From assembly GCA_016432525.1 (NCBI GenBank), contig CP066693.1, positions 96,815-160,814 on the forward strand: DNA of 64,000 nt. Direction: 5' to 3'. Under the pieces are notes generated by a model, which saw nothing but the letters and a program-made list of their open reading frames with translations, did no database searches and had not been told where the DNA came from. The position numbers and the translations under genes were made by a program. Positions 3,273 to 9,798 of this stretch are shown here, piece by piece. Every line of letters begins with the position of its first letter. Within the stretch, counting starts at the first letter, position 1. The DNA comes from Candidatus Woesebacteria bacterium. Its GTDB lineage: Bacteria > Patescibacteriota > Microgenomatia > UBA8517.

Positions 3273-3321
3273 ACGCTTATCTTACTCTAGTTTGAAGCTA
3301 AAAAAAAGAAGAGAGCTTAAG

Positions 3322-3395
3322 TAGCAGGGGTGGGGATCGAACCCACGACCTCAGCGTTATGAATGCTGTGCTCTAACCGACTGAGCTACCCTGCC
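3322..3395 (-). tRNA. tRNA-Met(CAU) (elongator-type; could also be tRNA-Ile2 if lysidinylated)
   Basis: Reverse complement GGCAGGG-TA-GCTC-AGTCGGTTA-GAGC-A-CAGCA-TTCATAA-CGCTG-AGGTC-GTGGG-TTCGATC-CCCAC-CCCTGCT-A. Cloverleaf with anticodon CAT. No 3 G-C pairs in the anticodon stem, so not an initiator. CCA is not encoded. Confidence 0.75.
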
Positions 3396-3568
3396 TCATG
3401 TTTTTAGGTTGCGAGACATGAATACCCCATACTGCGAACCACTAGTCAAAAGATCGAGAAATATATTATACCTAGTTTAAGGGGAAAATAACAACTCTAA
3501 AATATTGAAGCGCCTCTGGAAAAGCAATTTTTACCTTTCCAAAGGCAACTAAAGCTAGAATGTCGTAT

Positions 3569-3793
3569 TTATTTTCGTGCAGGATCTCTACCTAACTCCC
3601 TATGATATTCTCTCTCTTCCTCGAGACTTTCTGACTCTGTCTGTACAGGCGAAAATTCATACGCCGATCCCCCTCTGTTCAAGAGCCAGAAAATACCAAA
3701 AACTACTACGAAAAGAGCCAGTGCAATCAGAATTGAAACGCAAAGTATCACTATCTGGGTTTCCTTAGGCATCAACCAGAACCATTCAGGCAT
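3569..3793 (-). CDS. Small membrane protein (hypothetical)
   Basis: 74-aa ORF with one TM helix (ILCVSILIALALFVVVFGIFWLL) inside the higher-GC segment. Confidence 0.35.
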   Translation of the reverse strand: MPEWFWLMPKETQIVILCVSILIALALFVVVFGIFWLLNRGGSAYEFSPVQTESESLEEEREYHRELGRDPARK

Positions 3794-3992
3794 TCGAGTC
3801 TCCTTTATTTGTCTATCGATCTTCTTCTACTTACTTAAATGCTGAAAATGAAATTTGAGTTTAGCAACCTGGTTGCGGGGAATCCAAGAAATCAGAAATT
3901 ATTTTCTGACGTTACAGACTCCCGTTTTTATTCCAACTCTGTAAACTATTATCTCAAAATAAGGCTATTAAGTGCAACTTGGGGAGCGGTAG

Positions 3993-4403
3993 TTACTTAT
4001 TTCCACCTTGCGGTTGGTCAAATAGGTCCAGTTGAAGATATCTCGCTTTAACATCTGAGTGGTCCAACATATATTGAGAAATTTCTCCCAGGACCGAAAG
4101 ATGTACAGATTCTTCTACGAAATATTGAGAGGGCCATCTCTCTTTCTTAGCTTTAAGGTCATCATATAACTCCAGTGATGTTGTCAATATTACAGTATGG
4201 AAGCCAGTTGATTTTCCTTCTGCAAGCATTCGTTCTATAGTCCCTGTGAATGTGGGTACATAACTTTCAGGATTTATTTGTAATGAAGCACCCTCCTCAT
4301 CAGTGTCAGCCAGAAATGCATTGAGTCTCGCCACAAATGATTGTGCAAGTTGAGAGGGGTCGCCTTCTTTTGCTCTACGTCGAGGATTCTCTTTTGGATT
4401 CAT
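3993..4403 (-). CDS. Hypothetical protein (element-borne)
   Basis: 136-aa ORF in the higher-GC segment. No recognisable motif. Confidence 0.4.
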   Translation of the reverse strand: MNPKENPRRRAKEGDPSQLAQSFVARLNAFLADTDEEGASLQINPESYVPTFTGTIERMLAEGKSTGFHTVILTTSLELYDDLKAKKERWPSQYFVEESVHLSVLGEISQYMLDHSDVKARYLQLDLFDQPQGGNK

Positions 4404-4619
4404 TACGGTATTATATGACCTATAGCATATTTTGTCAACGGTAGGAGTTCGGGACCCACCCCACCCTAATTTTCTACTCCCCGAAGTTGATTAAGTGCCT
4501 CTTAAATCCGCAGCATAATTTTCAAATCTCCTACTCGCTGAACTGGTGCTATCATACCTTAATGCTACCTTTGGCATACCCTCCAATACCCATTCTACTT
4601 TCTTTGAGGGCGACGCTCT

Positions 4620-4725
4620 AGGCACGACCATCTATATAATCATTATTATTACTTATAAAGAATGATAATAAAGATAATATAAAGAGATATACGGTAGTAA
4701 ATTCGAGCAAATGTCGTGCCTGGGG
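4620..4725. repeat. Inverted repeat CTAGGCACGAC / GTCGTGCCTGG flanking a ~80-nt AT-rich spacer
   Basis: Seen directly at ~4618-4628 and ~4712-4724. The enclosed sequence is ~85% AT (catctatataatcattattattacttataaagaatgataataaag...). Confidence 0.5.
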
Positions 4726-5071
4726 TCTTAATGTTGTCCGTGTCCCTATATAAATTTATAAATCATAATTGAAAATCCTTTCAGACCATGAAATTGGACC
4801 GATACGACGGGATAATCTCTTGACAAGCTTCTTCAAGTTTGATACGCTGAATATGTTGAAAATTGAATATCCAAAGTAAGGCGGATACTGCTAGGTGAAC
4901 GAGTAATTTCAAGTAGACGCTAGCTGGGCCCGAAACGGTTGACAGGGAATAAAGGTTGGACGCCAAATCACGACCCTAAAAGCTTGTGAGACAACCCTAA
5001 ACCACCTATTCCTGGTGAATTGCACACTTTGTGTGTGTCATCAGGGATAGCCGTTTCAAAGTAACTGATGA

Positions 5072-5101
5072 GCAGCTCAAAGGAGCTGCTTTTTTGTTGC
5101 C
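5072..5101 (+). terminator. Rho-independent terminator AGCAGCTC-aaag-GAGCTGCT followed by TTTTTTG
   Basis: Perfect 8-bp GC-rich stem, 4-nt loop and U6 tract. It overlaps the annotated 5' end of ORF 5068-5406, so that ORF probably starts at the internal Met (~5109). Confidence 0.55.
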
Positions 5102-5108
5102 TTACTAT

Positions 5109-5406
5109 GGATACCAAAACCGATACAGATAATAACTACTTCCGCTCCGATGACCTGCTGATTTCCAGTTTCTTACTTTGTCGTCAAGCACAACTTATAG
5201 ACATTACATCTGATTCAGATTCTTCGCGACACTTTATTTTCACCTTCCAAGACCTCACCAAATGCAGGCAGTTAGTACAGGAATACATCAATGGAGCTTC
5301 AGCCCCAGCTAGGGACCTATTTGCGATGAGAGAGCAGCTACTGACTCAAATGCGAAATCGAGACGGAGACAGAAACGGAGGCAGATATGGCAACACCTAC
5401 AAATAA
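5109..5406 (+). CDS. Hypothetical protein (element-borne)
   Basis: ORF-track ORF 5068-5406. Start moved to internal Met (MDTKTDTD...) because the first 11 codons form the terminator hairpin. Confidence 0.4.
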
Positions 5407-5944
5407 ACCAACCTACATCTATCACTACCGAGAGATTCCCCAATGGCTCAAACAGTCGCCAAATGCATTTCATCTGCTGGCAGAATTTGCCAGGCGGGCC
5501 AGGAGAGAGGAGGCGGATGTGGGTTGGAACGGGGAAAATATCCGCTTACAACCTCGCCAGTTTATAACAGGGAGAATTAGACTATCCCAAGAGCTTGGAC
5601 TTACCGAAGGAGAGTATAGGTCTTCTTACCAGAAGTTGGTGCTATCTGGCCTCATTCGAACCGTTCGTTCAACCAAAAGATATACCGTGGTTGAGTACCT
5701 TGCTGACGGTGTTTTTGGACTTAATCTCCCCTCTGATTTACCATCTGAACAACCATCTGAATTACCAACTGATAACCGACCAACTACCACTAATAAGAAT
5801 GAGAATAATGAGAAGAATTTTAATTCGCGATTAGGGGAATCAACAGAAAAATCGCAAGAATCGCCTTCTTATAAGAACAGCGAAGCATATAAGCGTCTTG
5901 TTGAGCGGAGAAAGGAGCTGGGCCTATGGCCGAAGAAGTTATAG
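5387..5944 (+). CDS. Putative DNA-binding protein, possibly a replication/regulatory winged-helix protein (hypothetical)
   Basis: 185 aa with a basic N-terminal half and an acidic, low-complexity C-terminal half. Translationally coupled to neighbours. Function not established from sequence. Confidence 0.45.
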   Translation: MATPTNKPTYIYHYREIPQWLKQSPNAFHLLAEFARRARREEADVGWNGENIRLQPRQFITGRIRLSQELGLTEGEYRSSYQKLVLSGLIRTVRSTKRYTVVEYLADGVFGLNLPSDLPSEQPSELPTDNRPTTTNKNENNEKNFNSRLGESTEKSQESPSYKNSEAYKRLVERRKELGLWPKKL

Positions 5945-6162
5945 TTGCCCAAGCCCAGACCATCGCCGAGAAACTGAACGACCCAGGCGGGATTTGGTTC
6001 TACTATAAGGCCATCAGAATCCTGGGTTTTGATATTTGTTACCAACTTTGTTCTCATACGCTGGACAAATACCGTCGAGGTGAAATTAAAATTTCCCCTG
6101 GAGCCTATTACAACGGCTGCGTGGCGAAAGAAATTCAGGAGAGGAGGGGCCATGCAGCTTAA
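5926..6162 (+). CDS. Small hypothetical protein (element-borne)
   Basis: 78 aa. Overlaps the previous stop and the next start in an operon-like arrangement. Confidence 0.3.
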   Translation: MAEEVIVAQAQTIAEKLNDPGGIWFYYKAIRILGFDICYQLCSHTLDKYRRGEIKISPGAYYNGCVAKEIQERRGHAA

Positions 6163-6361
6163 TCAAGCAGCCCTGGACGAGTTTAAGAACCTATACGCCA
6201 AGCAATATAGGGTTAAATTGACTGACCAACAGGCACTTGAGTATGGCACCCGACTAATTACTTTTGTCAAAGCAGTCTGTGGTGAGAATTTGCCCAAAGT
6301 ATCGCAAAATAAGTTGATTCTGACCAACCAAAAGGATATTATTAAATTGACTACAGGATAG
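6152..6361 (+). CDS. Small hypothetical protein (element-borne)
   Basis: Internal ATG at 6152 is preceded by a strong RBS GGAGAGGAGGGG. 69 aa. The ORF-track start at 6029 is unlikely. Confidence 0.4.
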   Translation: MQLNQAALDEFKNLYAKQYRVKLTDQQALEYGTRLITFVKAVCGENLPKVSQNKLILTNQKDIIKLTTG

Positions 6362-6378
6362 ATATTGAGAAACAAATT

Positions 6379-8352
6379 ATGGATACAGATATTACTCCTA
6401 AATACATTGGCTACGCTCGAAAATCTTCTGAAGATAATAAAGAAAGACAGGCTGCCTCACTTCCTGACCAGCTTTATGTTATCGACCAACTGAAATCCAA
6501 ATTGGGGCTGAAACTGGTTACTGAACTTCAGGAGAGTAAGTCTGCTCATATTCCACAACAGCGAGAGGCTTTCAAGGAGATGGTCAATCTTATCGAACAG
6601 GGAAAAGCCAATGCTATTGTTACTTGGCACGCTAACCGCTTGGCCAGAAATCCTGTTGATGGTGGTTACATCATTTTTCTGATGGACGACGGCAAGCTCC
6701 TTGAGATTCTTACACCCTCTCGAACTTATCGAAACACTCCCGAAGATAAGTTTATGCTGGGCCTGGAGTTTTCCCTCTCCAAAAAAGACAGCGACGACAA
6801 AAGCGTTGTGGTTAAACGAGGTCTGGAGAAAAAGTTGCGAGATGGTTGGAGGCCTGGCTGGGCACCTCTTGGATATTTGAACGACAAAGGAACTGAAAGT
6901 GGATTTCGGAGAATCTATGCTGACCCGAAGCGATTGCCATTTGTGAGGAAAATATTTGCACTCTTTCTGGCTGGGACACCTGCAACTGAAGTTTTGCGTA
7001 TATCTCAAGAAGAATGGCACCTTACAACACTCCAGCGAAAGAGAATCGGCGGGAAATCACTCTCTTTAAGTGAACTTTATTTGATGCTTAATAACCCCTT
7101 TTACTGCGGCAAGTTTGAGTATCCAATTGGCAGCGGTAGTTGGTATGAGAATAATTCCTCTCTTGAGCGGGCTGTCAGCGAAGAAGAATTTAACCAGGTT
7201 CAAGTTAAGCTGGGCAATATCAGCCAGTATTACACCAAGCACGACTACACTTATTCGGGCTTAATGAAATGTGGCGACTGTGCTTCGGGGATAGTGGTTG
7301 ACGGCAAGTGGCAGGTCATTTGCGCCAGTTGTAAGACTAAATTCCAAATCACCAACAAAAACAAAGACCGATGTACAAAGTGTGGCACGCTGATTGCTGA
7401 AATGACCAACCCCAAAATTCTCCATTACATTTACCACCGTTGCGGCCGAAAGAAAGACCGCAGTTGCCGAGAGTTAAGTATTAGTGAGAAGGAACTTGAG
7501 AGGCAGATTGACGAGAGGCTTTCAGAAATTGAACTTAATCCCTACTTTCTTGAGTGGGCAGTCAAACAAATTGCTCAAATGCACGAGGAGGAGAAATCAT
7601 TCAGAGAGGACACAATAGAGGCTACTAAGCGGGCCCACGACGATTGTAGAAGGCGGTTGGATAACTTGGTGGCTCTCAAGATTGCTCCAACAAACACCGA
7701 CGGGAGTATGTTAAGTGATGAAGAATTTAAGAGAAGAAAACTACCTCTTGAGGAAGAACTTAAAGGTATTGAGAAGCAATTGGTTAACATTGACGAACGG
7801 ATGATTCAGGCCAATAACGACACGGTCAGAGCCGTTACTTTCTGCACTCGAGCTAGAGAGAAATTTGCCACAGACGACCCCAAAGTTAAGCGTGATATTT
7901 TCGTGGGGCTTGGATTGCACCTAACATTAAGAGGTAAAAAGGTCGATTTTGACGCTCCACTATACTTTGAAAAGATAGACGAAATGAAATCCCGTGTTCC
8001 GATTATTGGAAGTAGGGTTGCACCTAATGAAAAGCCCGTCGATATCACCAAAATGGAGGCCTTTTCAGCCTCCATTCCTACCTTGTTGCGGGGCCTGGAG
8101 TCGGACCAGGTCTTGGAGATTATGAGCCTCCCGTGCGGCCACTACACTTCCCCGCATATAACTAACATGCCTATTATATCTCAAAAAAACAGACTTAACC
8201 ACTTTTTCCAGTTCGGATCTGGTAGTTTTACCTCTTTTCTTACTCTTTCAGGCACAAGCTTTCTAAGCTCATCATCTGGTGGCAACACCAAAACAATATC
8301 ATTAGGTTTAGAAAGCCCAAGGCTATCCCTAGCCTCTTTTTCTTTAAAATAG
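6379..8352 (+). CDS. Large serine recombinase (resolvase/integrase family). The native C-terminus is probably near ~8150-8180, and the ORF reads through into low-GC host DNA
   Basis: N-terminal resolvase domain 'YIGYARKSSEDN...ANAIVTWHANRLARN' with the catalytic Ser in ARKSS. Followed by a recombinase domain and a Cys-rich zinc ribbon (CGDCASG...CASCKTK...CTKCG...HYIYHRCGRKKDRSC) and a coiled coil. The last ~60 codons are low-GC and overlap the ftsB-like gene on the opposite strand. Confidence 0.85.
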   Translation: MDTDITPKYIGYARKSSEDNKERQAASLPDQLYVIDQLKSKLGLKLVTELQESKSAHIPQQREAFKEMVNLIEQGKANAIVTWHANRLARNPVDGGYIIFLMDDGKLLEILTPSRTYRNTPEDKFMLGLEFSLSKKDSDDKSVVVKRGLEKKLRDGWRPGWAPLGYLNDKGTESGFRRIYADPKRLPFVRKIFALFLAGTPATEVLRISQEEWHLTTLQRKRIGGKSLSLSELYLMLNNPFYCGKFEYPIGSGSWYENNSSLERAVSEEEFNQVQVKLGNISQYYTKHDYTYSGLMKCGDCASGIVVDGKWQVICASCKTKFQITNKNKDRCTKCGTLIAEMTNPKILHYIYHRCGRKKDRSCRELSISEKELERQIDERLSEIELNPYFLEWAVKQIAQMHEEEKSFREDTIEATKRAHDDCRRRLDNLVALKIAPTNTDGSMLSDEEFKRRKLPLEEELKGIEKQLVNIDERMIQANNDTVRAVTFCTRAREKFATDDPKVKRDIFVGLGLHLTLRGKKVDFDAPLYFEKIDEMKSRVPIIGSRVAPNEKPVDITKMEAFSASIPTLLRGLESDQVLEIMSLPCGHYTSPHITNMPIISQKNRLNHFFQFGSGSFTSFLTLSGTSFLSSSSGGNTKTISLGLESPRLSLASFSLK

Positions 8353-8645: not shown

Positions 8646-9509
8646 ATGAACCAAGAACCACTTAAATCTCTTCTGCCAAAATTTATCGAAAACCTTAAAA
8701 CTAAGGGTCGTTCACCTGCAACCATCTTAGCTTATAGAGCCGATTTAGAACAGCTTATACTCTATCTTGAAAAGAATAATAAACTAAATGCATCTGATGT
8801 TGCATCAAGTGATTTAAACTCTTTCAGAGATTATTTGCTTGCCCAAAAATATACTCCAAAATCAGCATCCAGAAAACTAAATGCTGTTAAAACTTTTTTC
8901 CGTTGGCTTAAAGATGAAAACATTATAGCAAATGACCCATCAAAAGAAGTTGTCCACCCTAAAATTGAAGCCAGCCAACCAAAATTCTTAAATCAACTCG
9001 AATATCGCGCTTTAAGAGACATTACAAGAGTAGACGCTCGCATCGCAGCCATAATTGAACTAATCTTACAAACTGGAATGAGAATTTCAGAGGTAGCAAA
9101 CTTAAAACTTGCAAACATAAAAGATCATGAAGTAACAATTGAAAGCTATGCAACCCAACCTCAAAGAACAATTCCTTTGAATAATGCAGCCAAGTTAGCG
9201 CTTGATTCTTACTTAAAAGAACGCCCCCAAAGCGATTCTCCTTATACATTCATAAGTAAAAACGGAAAAGTTTTAGCAGTTAGAAACATCAGGGCCTCAA
9301 TCGATCGTTACATGCAAAAAGCAGAAATCGAAAAATTCTCAGTAAATGATTTAAGAACAACTTTTATTGTAGAAAACCTAAAAAGAGGAGTAGATTTGGT
9401 AACAATTTCCCAAACAGCAGGACACAAAAGATTATCAACAACCGAAAGATATTTAGAGCTTGCTGGAATCAAAGAACCAGGTAAAAAGCAAAAACTCGAA
9501 GAGCTTTAA
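8646..9509 (+). CDS. Tyrosine recombinase (XerC/XerD-like integrase family)
   Basis: N-terminal SAM-like domain. C-terminal catalytic motifs include 'HKRLSTTERY' (His-x-x-Arg...Tyr). Confidence 0.85.
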   Translation: MNQEPLKSLLPKFIENLKTKGRSPATILAYRADLEQLILYLEKNNKLNASDVASSDLNSFRDYLLAQKYTPKSASRKLNAVKTFFRWLKDENIIANDPSKEVVHPKIEASQPKFLNQLEYRALRDITRVDARIAAIIELILQTGMRISEVANLKLANIKDHEVTIESYATQPQRTIPLNNAAKLALDSYLKERPQSDSPYTFISKNGKVLAVRNIRASIDRYMQKAEIEKFSVNDLRTTFIVENLKRGVDLVTISQTAGHKRLSTTERYLELAGIKEPGKKQKLEEL

Positions 9510-9528
9510 TCTTGACAATAAACCGTAT

Positions 9529-9798
9529 ATGTCATATGCTAGACATATGATAAGAACACAAGTTTATCTGACAGAAGATTTGTATCAAACTATTCGCCTA
9601 AAAGCTAAAAAAGAGAAAAGGCCAACGGCTCAGTTGATACGACATCTCTTAGAAACTGGCCTTAAAGAAAAGAATAAAAAGACCAAGACAAACGCTGGTG
9701 ATGCCCTCCTACGAATTGCACGCCTTGGAGAGAAGTTAAAAATAAAAGGACCTAAATATTTATCCACTAATATTGATAAATATCTCTACGAAGAATGA
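9529..9798 (+). CDS. Putative antitoxin (ribbon-helix-helix-like), partner of downstream PIN gene
   Basis: ~89 aa from ATG 9529 ('MSYARHMIRTQVYLTEDLYQTIRLKAKKEKR'). ATGA stop/start overlap with the PIN ORF at 9795. Confidence 0.5.
   Translation: MSYARHMIRTQVYLTEDLYQTIRLKAKKEKRPTAQLIRHLLETGLKEKNKKTKTNAGDALLRIARLGEKLKIKGPKYLSTNIDKYLYEE

Follow-up and report, generated by a model that had tools for sequence, protein, structure and literature searches.

A 4.2 kb element has very probably inserted at the 3' end of the gene for an initiator-type tRNA-Met in a 64,000-nucleotide stretch of a Candidatus Woesebacteria genome (assembly GCA_016432525.1, contig CP066693.1, positions 96,815–160,814, forward strand; this whole stretch is called the window and all positions refer to it). 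The element uses a large serine integrase, and its attP site appears to lie inside the open reading frame (ORF) of the integrase gene (int). Integration would therefore detach the last about 21 codons of int, which would be replaced by an antisense read-through of the tRNA gene. Both the targeting of tRNA genes and the location of attP within int are habits otherwise associated with tyrosine integrases, whereas the enzyme is here a serine integrase.

Integrase, element ends and target tRNA

The features needed for this assignment are the following (loci other than the window are designated by L numbers).

3321–3395, minus strand: elongator-type tRNA-Met(CAU) of the host, outside of the element (ARAGORN; Rfam, 67.5 bits)
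3396–3871, no strand: non-element spacer that ends on the right with the B arm of attL (GC content 38.9%; no counterpart in L003)
3872–3880, plus strand: attL core GTTGCGGGG, a direct repeat of the 3' acceptor strand of tRNA-fMet
3879–3944, plus strand: last 21 int codons in displaced position, G-IQEIRNYFLTLQTPVFIPTL-stop (reconstruction, codon comparison and alignment)
6379–8352, plus strand: large serine integrase ORF, 657 amino acids in the integrated state
6379–8090, plus strand: conserved body of int, residues 1–570, ending in SIPTLLRG (homologue alignment and family searches)
8055–8073, minus strand: hairpin GGAGGC-N7-GCCTCC, followed by ATTTTGGT on the minus strand, within the int codons for MEAFSAS
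8085–8093, plus strand: attR core GTTGCGGGG, int codons L-R-G and about positions 66–74 of tRNA-fMet
8085–8156, minus strand: initiator-type tRNA-Met(CAU) of the host, the integration target (ARAGORN; Rfam, 47 bits)
8094–8352, plus strand: artefactual 87-codon extension of int, in which tRNA-fMet and the 3' end of ftsB are read in antisense

The ORF 6379–8352 encodes a large serine recombinase, as stated in a preliminary description of this DNA. The 657-amino-acid protein matches the Pfam families Resolvase (PF00239, 54.6 bits for a cut-off of 23.3, E = 1.7e-14) and Recombinase (PF07508, residues 185–278, 31.4 bits for a cut-off of 21.1, E = 2.4e-7), as well as a zinc-ribbon family at a score under its cut-off (PF13408, 16.8 bits). 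Across 28 aligned family members, residues R14, S16, R87 and R90 and eight cysteines never vary. The protein is classified as an integrase by PHROG (6e-54), its closest NCBIfam families are XisF and CcrA/B and the closest solved structure is that of SPbeta SprA, the match being confined to the N-terminal 300 residues. The AlphaFold2 (AF2) model of P0022, a 60%-identical homologue, shows a catalytic domain, a recombinase domain, a zinc ribbon and a coiled coil of ~110 residues (beta-ribbon 296–365, helices 386–433 and 445–496, predicted local distance difference test (pLDDT) of about 80). This model and the eight invariant cysteines bear out the zinc ribbon and coiled coil announced earlier. 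The only recombinase encoded within 3872–8093 belongs to the serine family (Pfam, NCBIfam); the XerC/D-like tyrosine recombinase encoded at 8646–9509 is a host gene that is kept in relatives.

Among the 8000 candidates scored, 478 homologues of the integrase reach E<=1e-10, and those with a name come from Patescibacteria/Microgenomates; at least 531 matches were found among GTDB species genomes. Such elements, which had been thought unusual in the Candidate Phyla Radiation (CPR), are thus common there. None of the Int proteins of deposited phages exceeds 24% identity to that of the window, and homologues from IMG/VR reach 38% identity at most, with zero matches to the exact attP pattern; the cluster to which the Int of the window belongs includes only the integrated form and the L003 copy. 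Most homologues have 566–580 amino acids and end in ...ASIPTLLRG. The longer ones run on as RESHPxRQIMSLxC, which is the tRNA read in antisense, IMS being the anticodon loop. The 87-residue tail of the 657-amino-acid protein deposited as QQG47571.1/MBI1863810.1 is likewise an artefact of annotation, and its correction, together with the definition of the element ends, amends the genome annotation.

The element extends from 3872 to 8093. Its GC content (43.1% vs 37.3% for the window) is within the top 2.7% of 4.2-kb windows, in line with the raised GC noted previously. No long direct repeat (none above 14 nucleotides) was found between its ends; a directed search revealed that ACCTgGTTGCGGGG at 3867–3880 matches the junction at 8080–8093. 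When all GTTGCGG sites of the related loci were listed, a far-side motif, NNTGGAAGAAATCAGAAATT, was found after the core. Sites that combine core and motif are located at 3872 in the window, 5937 in L167, 5727 in L168, 4720, 5606 and 6377 in L169, 2105 in L005, 5118 in L006, 4678 in L009, 6658 in L010 and 4100 in L017, the motif that follows the left repeat being common to at least 10 independent insertions; the overall count is 12 attL-like sites in 9 loci besides the window. The alignment of attL sites is unconserved to the left of the core and strongly conserved to its right, and the core followed by the P' motif occurs only once in the window (0 expected by chance). The region 3396–3871 lies outside of the element; it has a host-like GC content and no counterpart in L003, a 93%-identical copy.

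In the window, attL and attR share 9 bp and their arms are unrelated. The identity shared by attL and attR extends over 8 to 27 bp depending on the locus, and is reduced to the 7-bp sequence GTTGCGG, roughly positions 68–74 of the tRNA, when eight loci are intersected. The crossover would thus be expected inside GTTGCGG, and the symmetry TCAATTCC-N8-TG-N8-GGAAGAAA suggests TG as the putative central dinucleotide. The break has the same position in two other classes of targets: for tRNA-Phe targets, the attR of L007 and the attP of L172 part directly after GTGCCG, and the core is TTGGTACCG for the tRNA-Leu(UAA) target of L065. Two other candidates were rejected: GGTTGCGAGAC at 3406–3417 as the left end, a weak match without any P' motif after it, and an ATTCC/GGAAT symmetry as the centre of attP, which implies a spacer of odd length and is missing from L005-type sites.

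These ends differ from those of the preliminary description, which placed the left boundary at ~3400–3560 and the right junction at ~8170–8180. The GC shift reported at 8170–8180 does fall at the end of the ftsB-like ORF (8181), but it is mainly the end of the GC-rich tRNA gene. Similarly, the integrative nature of the element was correctly recognized, but its site is the 3' end of the initiator-type tRNA-Met gene and not the interval between a tRNA-Met gene and ftsB. The apparent read-through of int, then taken as a sign of an attachment site, is no evidence in itself: it results from the target tRNA at 8085–8156, which had been missed, and consists of antisense tRNA and ftsB.

The int ORF contains the target tRNA gene in antisense, within its last 90 codons. 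A scan of metagenomes with the neighbouring TrpS protein yielded 80 loci and revealed syntenic relatives. The order XerC-FtsB-tRNA(CAU)-tRNA(CAU)-TrpS, devoid of integrase, recurs in relatives with 60–76% TrpS identity, and 10 relatives keep FtsB-tRNAfMet-tRNAMet-TrpS with no integrase gene. This gene order, kept in relatives lacking the integrase, shows that the target is a host gene; with TrpS identity of at most 76%, their attB sequences are too distant to be aligned. The absence of empty-site alleles in relatives, which the preliminary description gave as a refutation, does not apply, as relatives with conserved synteny have no insert. In the window, the target tRNA gene is host DNA except for a few nucleotides at its 3' end.

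Of the two tRNAs found in each of these relatives, one invariably shows C1xA72 or U1-A72 in an acceptor stem that reads (C/U)GCGGGG...CCCCGCA-A. The target tRNA of the window, with U1-A72, has the same acceptor stem, which is also that of E. coli tRNA-fMet. Its anticodon stem is GGAGG/UCUCC and its 11:24 pair is U:A, as in the copies of the relatives; it lacks both the A11:U24 pair of classical initiators and the three successive G:C pairs of their anticodon stem. Since these three G:C pairs are absent, it is named here only initiator-type, and it would presumably act in initiation. The orientation of the target tRNA gene differs between relatives, and it is followed by the element, which is flipped and lies between FtsB and the tRNA in L167, L169 and L171. 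Related elements are always found at the tRNA gene's 3' end, with int proximal. The hairpin that lies within int codons immediately ahead of the tRNA end (8055–8073 in the window, with a short run of T after it on the tRNA strand) recurs family-wide among the compared junctions. From its sequence and position, it resembles a terminator that would replace that of the tRNA, and it was left unflagged by a generic terminator scan.

This mode of integration is not restricted to the window. In a sample of 80 genome loci encoding int homologues (30–68% identity), the 3' end of an opposite-strand tRNA gene coincides within a few nucleotides with the end of the Int alignment in 38 cases, for only 0.65 int/tRNA overlaps expected from the background density of tRNA genes. 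The targets represent 13 anticodon classes and include tRNA genes for Asn (16 loci), Gln, Ser, Met, Leu, Phe, Trp, Ala, Gly and Asp, as well as intron-bearing tRNA-fMet genes and one tmRNA gene (L061). At several loci (such as L058, L072, L031 and L007), the target closes an array of host tRNA genes.

Some additional features of the targets were observed. The target tRNA of the window (8086–8156, minus strand) has A8 and the T-loop UCCGACU, with a C in place of the conserved U55; some relatives have UCCAACU. A group I intron interrupts the anticodon loop of the target tRNA in L005 (10941–11149), L008 (11741–11941) and L009 (11735–11920; all on the minus strand, Rfam). Introns of the same group were recognized by sequence in the targets of L167 and L169, and probably of L003, the allele of the window being intron-less; the intron-bearing alleles belong to several Microgenomates/Levybacteria. 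Integration at the extreme 3' end of the tRNA gene is indifferent to the presence of an intron in the anticodon loop.

An attachment site within the integrase gene

When residues 1–570 of Int are joined to the sequence that follows the attL core, the frame remains open into a conserved tail, LEEIRNYFLT..TP.FIPDL. The tails reconstructed in this way, after LLRG/VLRG, are as follows.

Window: IQEIRNYFLTLQTPVFIPTL, then stop
L005: LEEIRNFFLSQTTPIFIPDLS, then stop
L006: LEEIRTYFLTQTTPVFIPQLA, then stop
L010: LEEIRNYFLTLPVPIFIPDLRK...
L009: WELIRNSLIASPEPIYIPDLR, then stop

The displaced stretch doubles as the P' arm of attP, AATCCAAGAAATCAGAAATT. Of the tail codons compared between the window and L006, 4 are identical, 10 differ synonymously and 6 non-synonymously, and conservation of the tail reaches 66 bp from the core, past any half-site of a serine integrase. 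This pattern rich in synonymous changes and this extent of conservation point to selection acting on the tail protein.

The junction is also found in its natural form. P0022, a database protein of 591 amino acids, corresponds to the attP form and its C-terminus is ...SLCRHLEEIRTYFLTSPTPAFIPDLR, followed by a stop codon. The attP junction is present at two places of its contig, L172 (a JGI contig), at 1–166 and 6197–6362. These two copies are separated by about 6.2 kb, share 97% identity over 166 bp and are followed by different cargo; the P arm of L172 is almost identical to that of the attR of L007. This double junction implies that P-O-P' junctions exist in nature and suggests that L172 is a tandem array or a concatemer of related elements. 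The proposal that the attachment site lies in the 3' end of int is thereby upheld, the reconstructed and natural attP forms sharing the 21-residue tail across the junction. On this comparison of sequences, attP can be placed inside the int ORF. After integration, 570 of the 589 int codons, including those for all recognized domains, stay contiguous, and the antisense-tRNA sequence that replaces the tail amounts to 0 to about 90 residues depending on the host.

Taken as a whole, the integration process could be viewed as follows. In the excised circle, the 589-codon int ORF would span attP, codons L568-R569-G570 forming the core GTTGCGG(GG) and the P' arm consisting of the final ~21 codons (IQEIRNYFLTLQTPVFIPTL). 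Int would pair attP with an attB made of the 3' acceptor strand of the tRNA gene, its T arm and ~20 bp of the host DNA located downstream, and strands would be exchanged at a dinucleotide within GTTGCGG. As the core is the same in attP and attB, the tRNA gene would be rebuilt exactly, and the element would bring a new hairpin downstream of it. The native tail of int would end 4.2 kb away at attL, and int would read into the antisense strand of the tRNA gene. Excision would restore the full int gene and would probably need the product of orfD, an upstream ORF of 69 codons, as a directionality factor.

A regulatory role of the tail swap can only be put forward tentatively. The location of attP in the int ORF would offer a simple route for a serine integrase to sense its integration state, the control of directionality being an open problem. 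According to a speculative scheme, the swap would be a built-in sensor of directionality or state, and a large and widespread CPR-centred clade of serine integrases would have independently taken the niche of tRNA/tmRNA 3' ends, until now ascribed to tyrosine integrases. In this scheme, Int with its tail, made only by the excised form, would favour attP x attB recombination; loss of the tail would change stability or synapsis preference, leaving the enzyme either locked or competent for attL x attR recombination with the orfD product.

Several observations weigh against the reading of the element as a mobile unit with attP inside int. The direct repeat is only 9 bp long, and the TG dinucleotide is deduced from a weak dyad symmetry (TTCC-N18-GGAA). 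The contig L172 is a tandem or concatemeric array and no closed circle. Exact-protein look-ups of FtsB, XerC and TrpS returned only the occupied allele, on contigs identical to the window, and none of an empty site, a circle or a read-level junction was retrieved for this element; the nearest 'empty' relatives have about 70% TrpS identity, and attB is a reconstruction. Concerning the tail, it is modelled in P0022 as a low-confidence helix (pLDDT about 40). In L003, its distal part is frameshifted by a 10-nucleotide insertion (L003 1–75) that puts TPIFIPTL out of frame, and the tails of L167 and L169 diverge past about 10 residues, so that the distal tail may be dispensable.

Some of these data would also fit a fixed and decaying remnant, made immobile in a 'suicidal'-like manner by the loss of the native tail of int and the gain of an 87-residue nonsense extension. 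This explanation deserves consideration but is rather unlikely. Besides the retrieval of occupied alleles only for the species and the frameshifted tail of L003, it would account for the lack of structural and transfer genes, and decay is common in the family, as illustrated by the piled-up dead attL sites of L169. It fits poorly with an int body that is intact with all its catalytic residues, a tail ORF that is still intact with its own stop at attL, five intact operon ORFs and a GC content that remains distinct. Moreover, L003 originates from another sample and abuts a different, intron-type tRNA-fMet allele, and a 93%-identical copy beside a different tRNA allele implies a recent transfer. 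Its tRNA arm (the L003 sequence ends inside the tRNA) differs from that of the window far more than the element does and shows compensatory changes in the T stem. The copy of the window may thus be mobile as well. It could alternatively be argued that what follows the attL core on its right is only a P' arm, that its coding capacity is incidental and that the true Int ends at LLRG. Many database homologues indeed stop right after LLRG, the first 20 bp past the core (GGAAGAAATCAGAAATT) are conserved as DNA and include a GGAAG...CTTCC inverted repeat, and the AF2 confidence is low for the tail. A half-site of a large serine recombinase covers, however, about 25 bp and not 66 bp, changes are rich in synonymous ones, the window, L005, L006, L009, L010 and L172 all keep the frame up to the FIPDL end and its stop, and a related tail motif, IRQFDGYIHIPQL, is present in a 32%-identical clade that targets tRNA-Leu. 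The homologues ending at LLRG are integrated forms whose stop is provided by the tRNA. A P' arm with only incidental coding capacity therefore appears improbable.

The remaining explanations deny that the tRNA is the target or that the gene is mobile. If the tRNA were cargo of an element with its true ends elsewhere, the overlap of tRNA and int kept across the family and the oddities of the window tRNA (U1-A72, A8 and the UCCGACU T-loop) would be understandable. This is very improbable, as the same type of tRNA is found in the FtsB/TrpS neighbourhood of relatives lacking the integrase, as targets at other loci are the last members of host tRNA arrays and exist as alleles with and without a group I intron, as the repeat of attL starts within the last 9 nucleotides of the tRNA, and as the tRNA arm, with its compensatory T-stem changes, diverges between L003 and the window far more than the element. 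Even less credible is a domesticated host invertase or resolvase gene lying beside a tRNA gene by chance. Its sole support is that there is no direct evidence of excision; the gene is missing from syntenic relatives, is associated with att sites, a deviant GC content and a variable cargo slot, and has hundreds of homologues with a patchy distribution. Integration by a serine recombinase into a host tRNA gene, with attP inside int, thus remains the preferred reading.

An observation on L169 concerns repeated use of the same site. This locus carries three successive attL-like sites (4720, 5606 and 6377) upstream of one integrase gene, which indicates repeated insertions at one tRNA gene, the older copies having decayed.

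Relation to known integration systems

The integrase has the same order of domains as the serine integrases SPbeta SprA, phiC31, Bxb1, A118/LI Int, CcrAB and XisF. A short identical core between dissimilar arms fits the dinucleotide crossover of large serine integrases. In SPbeta, sprB adjoins sprA, and the small conserved ORF directly upstream of int (orfD) resembles this arrangement. The integrase differs from the characterized serine integrases by its identity of at most 24% to deposited phage Int proteins, by its target, the 3' end of a tRNA gene, and by its attP located inside int.

In its overall organization, the element is like the tRNA/tmRNA islands of tyrosine integrases (Islander, P4/lambda-like): int lies by the intact tRNA gene, the tRNA gene's 3' end is regenerated and the far repeat is displaced. 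As in these islands, targets switch among many tRNA genes and tandem accretion occurs (L169). All elements of the Islander layout are present (tRNA 8085–8156, repeat 3872–3880 of 9 nucleotides and integrase gene inside), except that the integrase is not of the tyrosine family. Tyrosine-integrase islands typically leave a much longer fragment of the tRNA gene, which starts at the anticodon or T loop and reaches the 3' end. The element is unlike Islander-type islands in its serine catalyst and in its repeat of just 7–9 bp at the extreme 3' end. According to the authors of Islander, tRNA-targeting islands were known only with tyrosine integrases, serine recombinases not being known there (PMC4383910). 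The literature searched contained no later account of tRNA-targeting serine integrases, unhighlighted records in att-site databases remaining possible.

The location of attP recalls the 'suicidal' tyrosine integrases of the archaeal elements SSV1 and pT26-2, which have their recombination site within the integrase ORF and target a tRNA gene, int being partitioned by integration (PMC7253208). The present element resembles SSV-type elements in these three respects. It differs from them in the unrelated enzyme family, in the domain of life and in the extent of the change, as only about 21 codons are detached, the gene being altered rather than halved.

A change of the C-terminus of a protein by integration is also said to underlie the integration-dependent immunity of the mycobacteriophages BPs and Brujita (clusters G/N/P). 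In the work of Broussard et al. (2013), attP reportedly lies in the 3' end of the repressor gene, the integrase is reportedly a tyrosine recombinase and the removed repressor tail is said to be a degradation tag. As in BPs and Brujita, integration here alters the C-terminus of a protein, but the gene affected encodes a serine integrase and not a repressor, and the Int tail (…FIPTL) has no obvious ssrA-like end, as opposed to a degradation tag.

Mapping software and reviews assume that serine integrases avoid tRNA genes (PMC4383910), so that this family would change the mapping of mobile DNA in Patescibacteria and beyond. Its breadth is considerable, with at least 13 tRNA anticodon classes and a tmRNA among its targets and a tRNA overlap in about half of the 80 loci. 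Compact serine integrases with a short and conserved natural attB would also be attractive for the engineering of organisms that are hard to manipulate, and an initiator tRNA is present in every bacterium.

Cargo and neighbouring DNA

The other features of the element and of the spacer are listed below.

3569–3793, minus strand: membrane ORF of 74 amino acids in the host (or at least non-element) spacer
3993–4403, minus strand: cargo ORF o136, 136 amino acids, with a perfect TTGACA-17-TATAAT sigma-70 consensus promoter at 4438–4410
4620–4725, no strand: AT-rich intergenic stretch between divergent units, flanked by the 9-bp inverted repeat AGGCACGAC/GTCGTGCCT
4856–5100, plus strand: conserved ORF-free stretch ending in an intrinsic terminator (5070–5091)
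5107–5406, plus strand: orfA, 99 amino acids (weak match to DUF5659, E=2e-4, under the Pfam cut-off; 97% identical in L003)
5387–5944, plus strand: orfB, 185 amino acids (winged-helix N-terminal domain, then a disordered linker)
5926–6162, plus strand: orfC, 78 amino acids
6152–6361, plus strand: orfD, 69 amino acids, directly upstream of int in every close element

None of the seven cargo ORFs matched a virion structural, packaging, lysis or transfer protein (Pfam, PHROGs, NCBIfam), and no relaxase was found among the ORFs of the element. Given its 4.2 kb and its lack of virion and lysis genes, it is not a prophage. The tight coupling of the small ORFs and the embedded terminator mentioned in the preliminary description were both recovered, as the ORFs of 5107–6361 overlap closely and the terminator is present at 5070–5091. 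The AT-rich stretch with inverted repeats is also present and partly conserved in L003, but its 9-bp repeat is not kept there; an origin or a regulatory region is possible at this place. The left cargo slot is variable, since it is occupied in L003 by an unrelated membrane ORF of 170 amino acids.

The orfD product is a candidate recombination directionality factor or cofactor, owing to the position of its gene upstream of int. Searches by tblastn detected it with 44–63% identity in L003–L010 and L167–L172, and weaker matches lie upstream of int in distant clades, including some with other tRNA targets and from other phyla; it has no match in the family libraries searched, including Pfam and NCBIfam.

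The orfB product matches PHROG 2514, a DnaD-like helicase loader (6.8e-11), and its residues 15–110 are modelled by AF2 with a pLDDT of about 90. Foldseek retrieved only generic winged helices (MarR/TubR-like winged helix-turn-helix, E about 0.01), and a profile search against PDB sequences gave zero matches. Its homologues number 20, on contigs of about 1–73 kb, mostly <10 kb, the few named sources being CPR bacteria; ORFs of ~185 amino acids occupy the same position in L167–L172, but their N-terminal halves are not homologous to that of orfB. OrfB might be a replication initiator or loader of the excised circle, or a regulator.

The region 4856–5100 may encode a small RNA of the element. It comprises about 240 nucleotides preceded by a promoter, shows four compensatory pairs between the window and L003, and matched zero Rfam families. 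Another RNA was observed in a Levybacteria element, located between the attL (5118) and attR (11680) of L006, where a LOOT RNA (Rfam RF03000, 87 bits) is found at 7485–7599 on the minus strand.

In the neighbourhood of the element, a tRNA-Ile(UAU) gene (10485–10559, minus strand) is kept beside XerC in relatives, which suggests that AUA is decoded without a lysidine-modified tRNA-Ile(CAU). Just beyond XerC, the intervals 9460–10217 and 10754–11824 contain a ribbon-helix-helix (RHH)/PIN toxin-antitoxin pair together with an ORF for an IS110-like transposase that weakly matches Transposase_20, and represent more mobile or accessory DNA near the tRNA cluster. Finally, the Logan contigs of SRR12113414, the sample from which the window comes, break in the elongator tRNA-Met gene (3319–3348 of the window, 30-nucleotide overlap), which points to a branch of the assembly graph due to a repeat or to strain variation.

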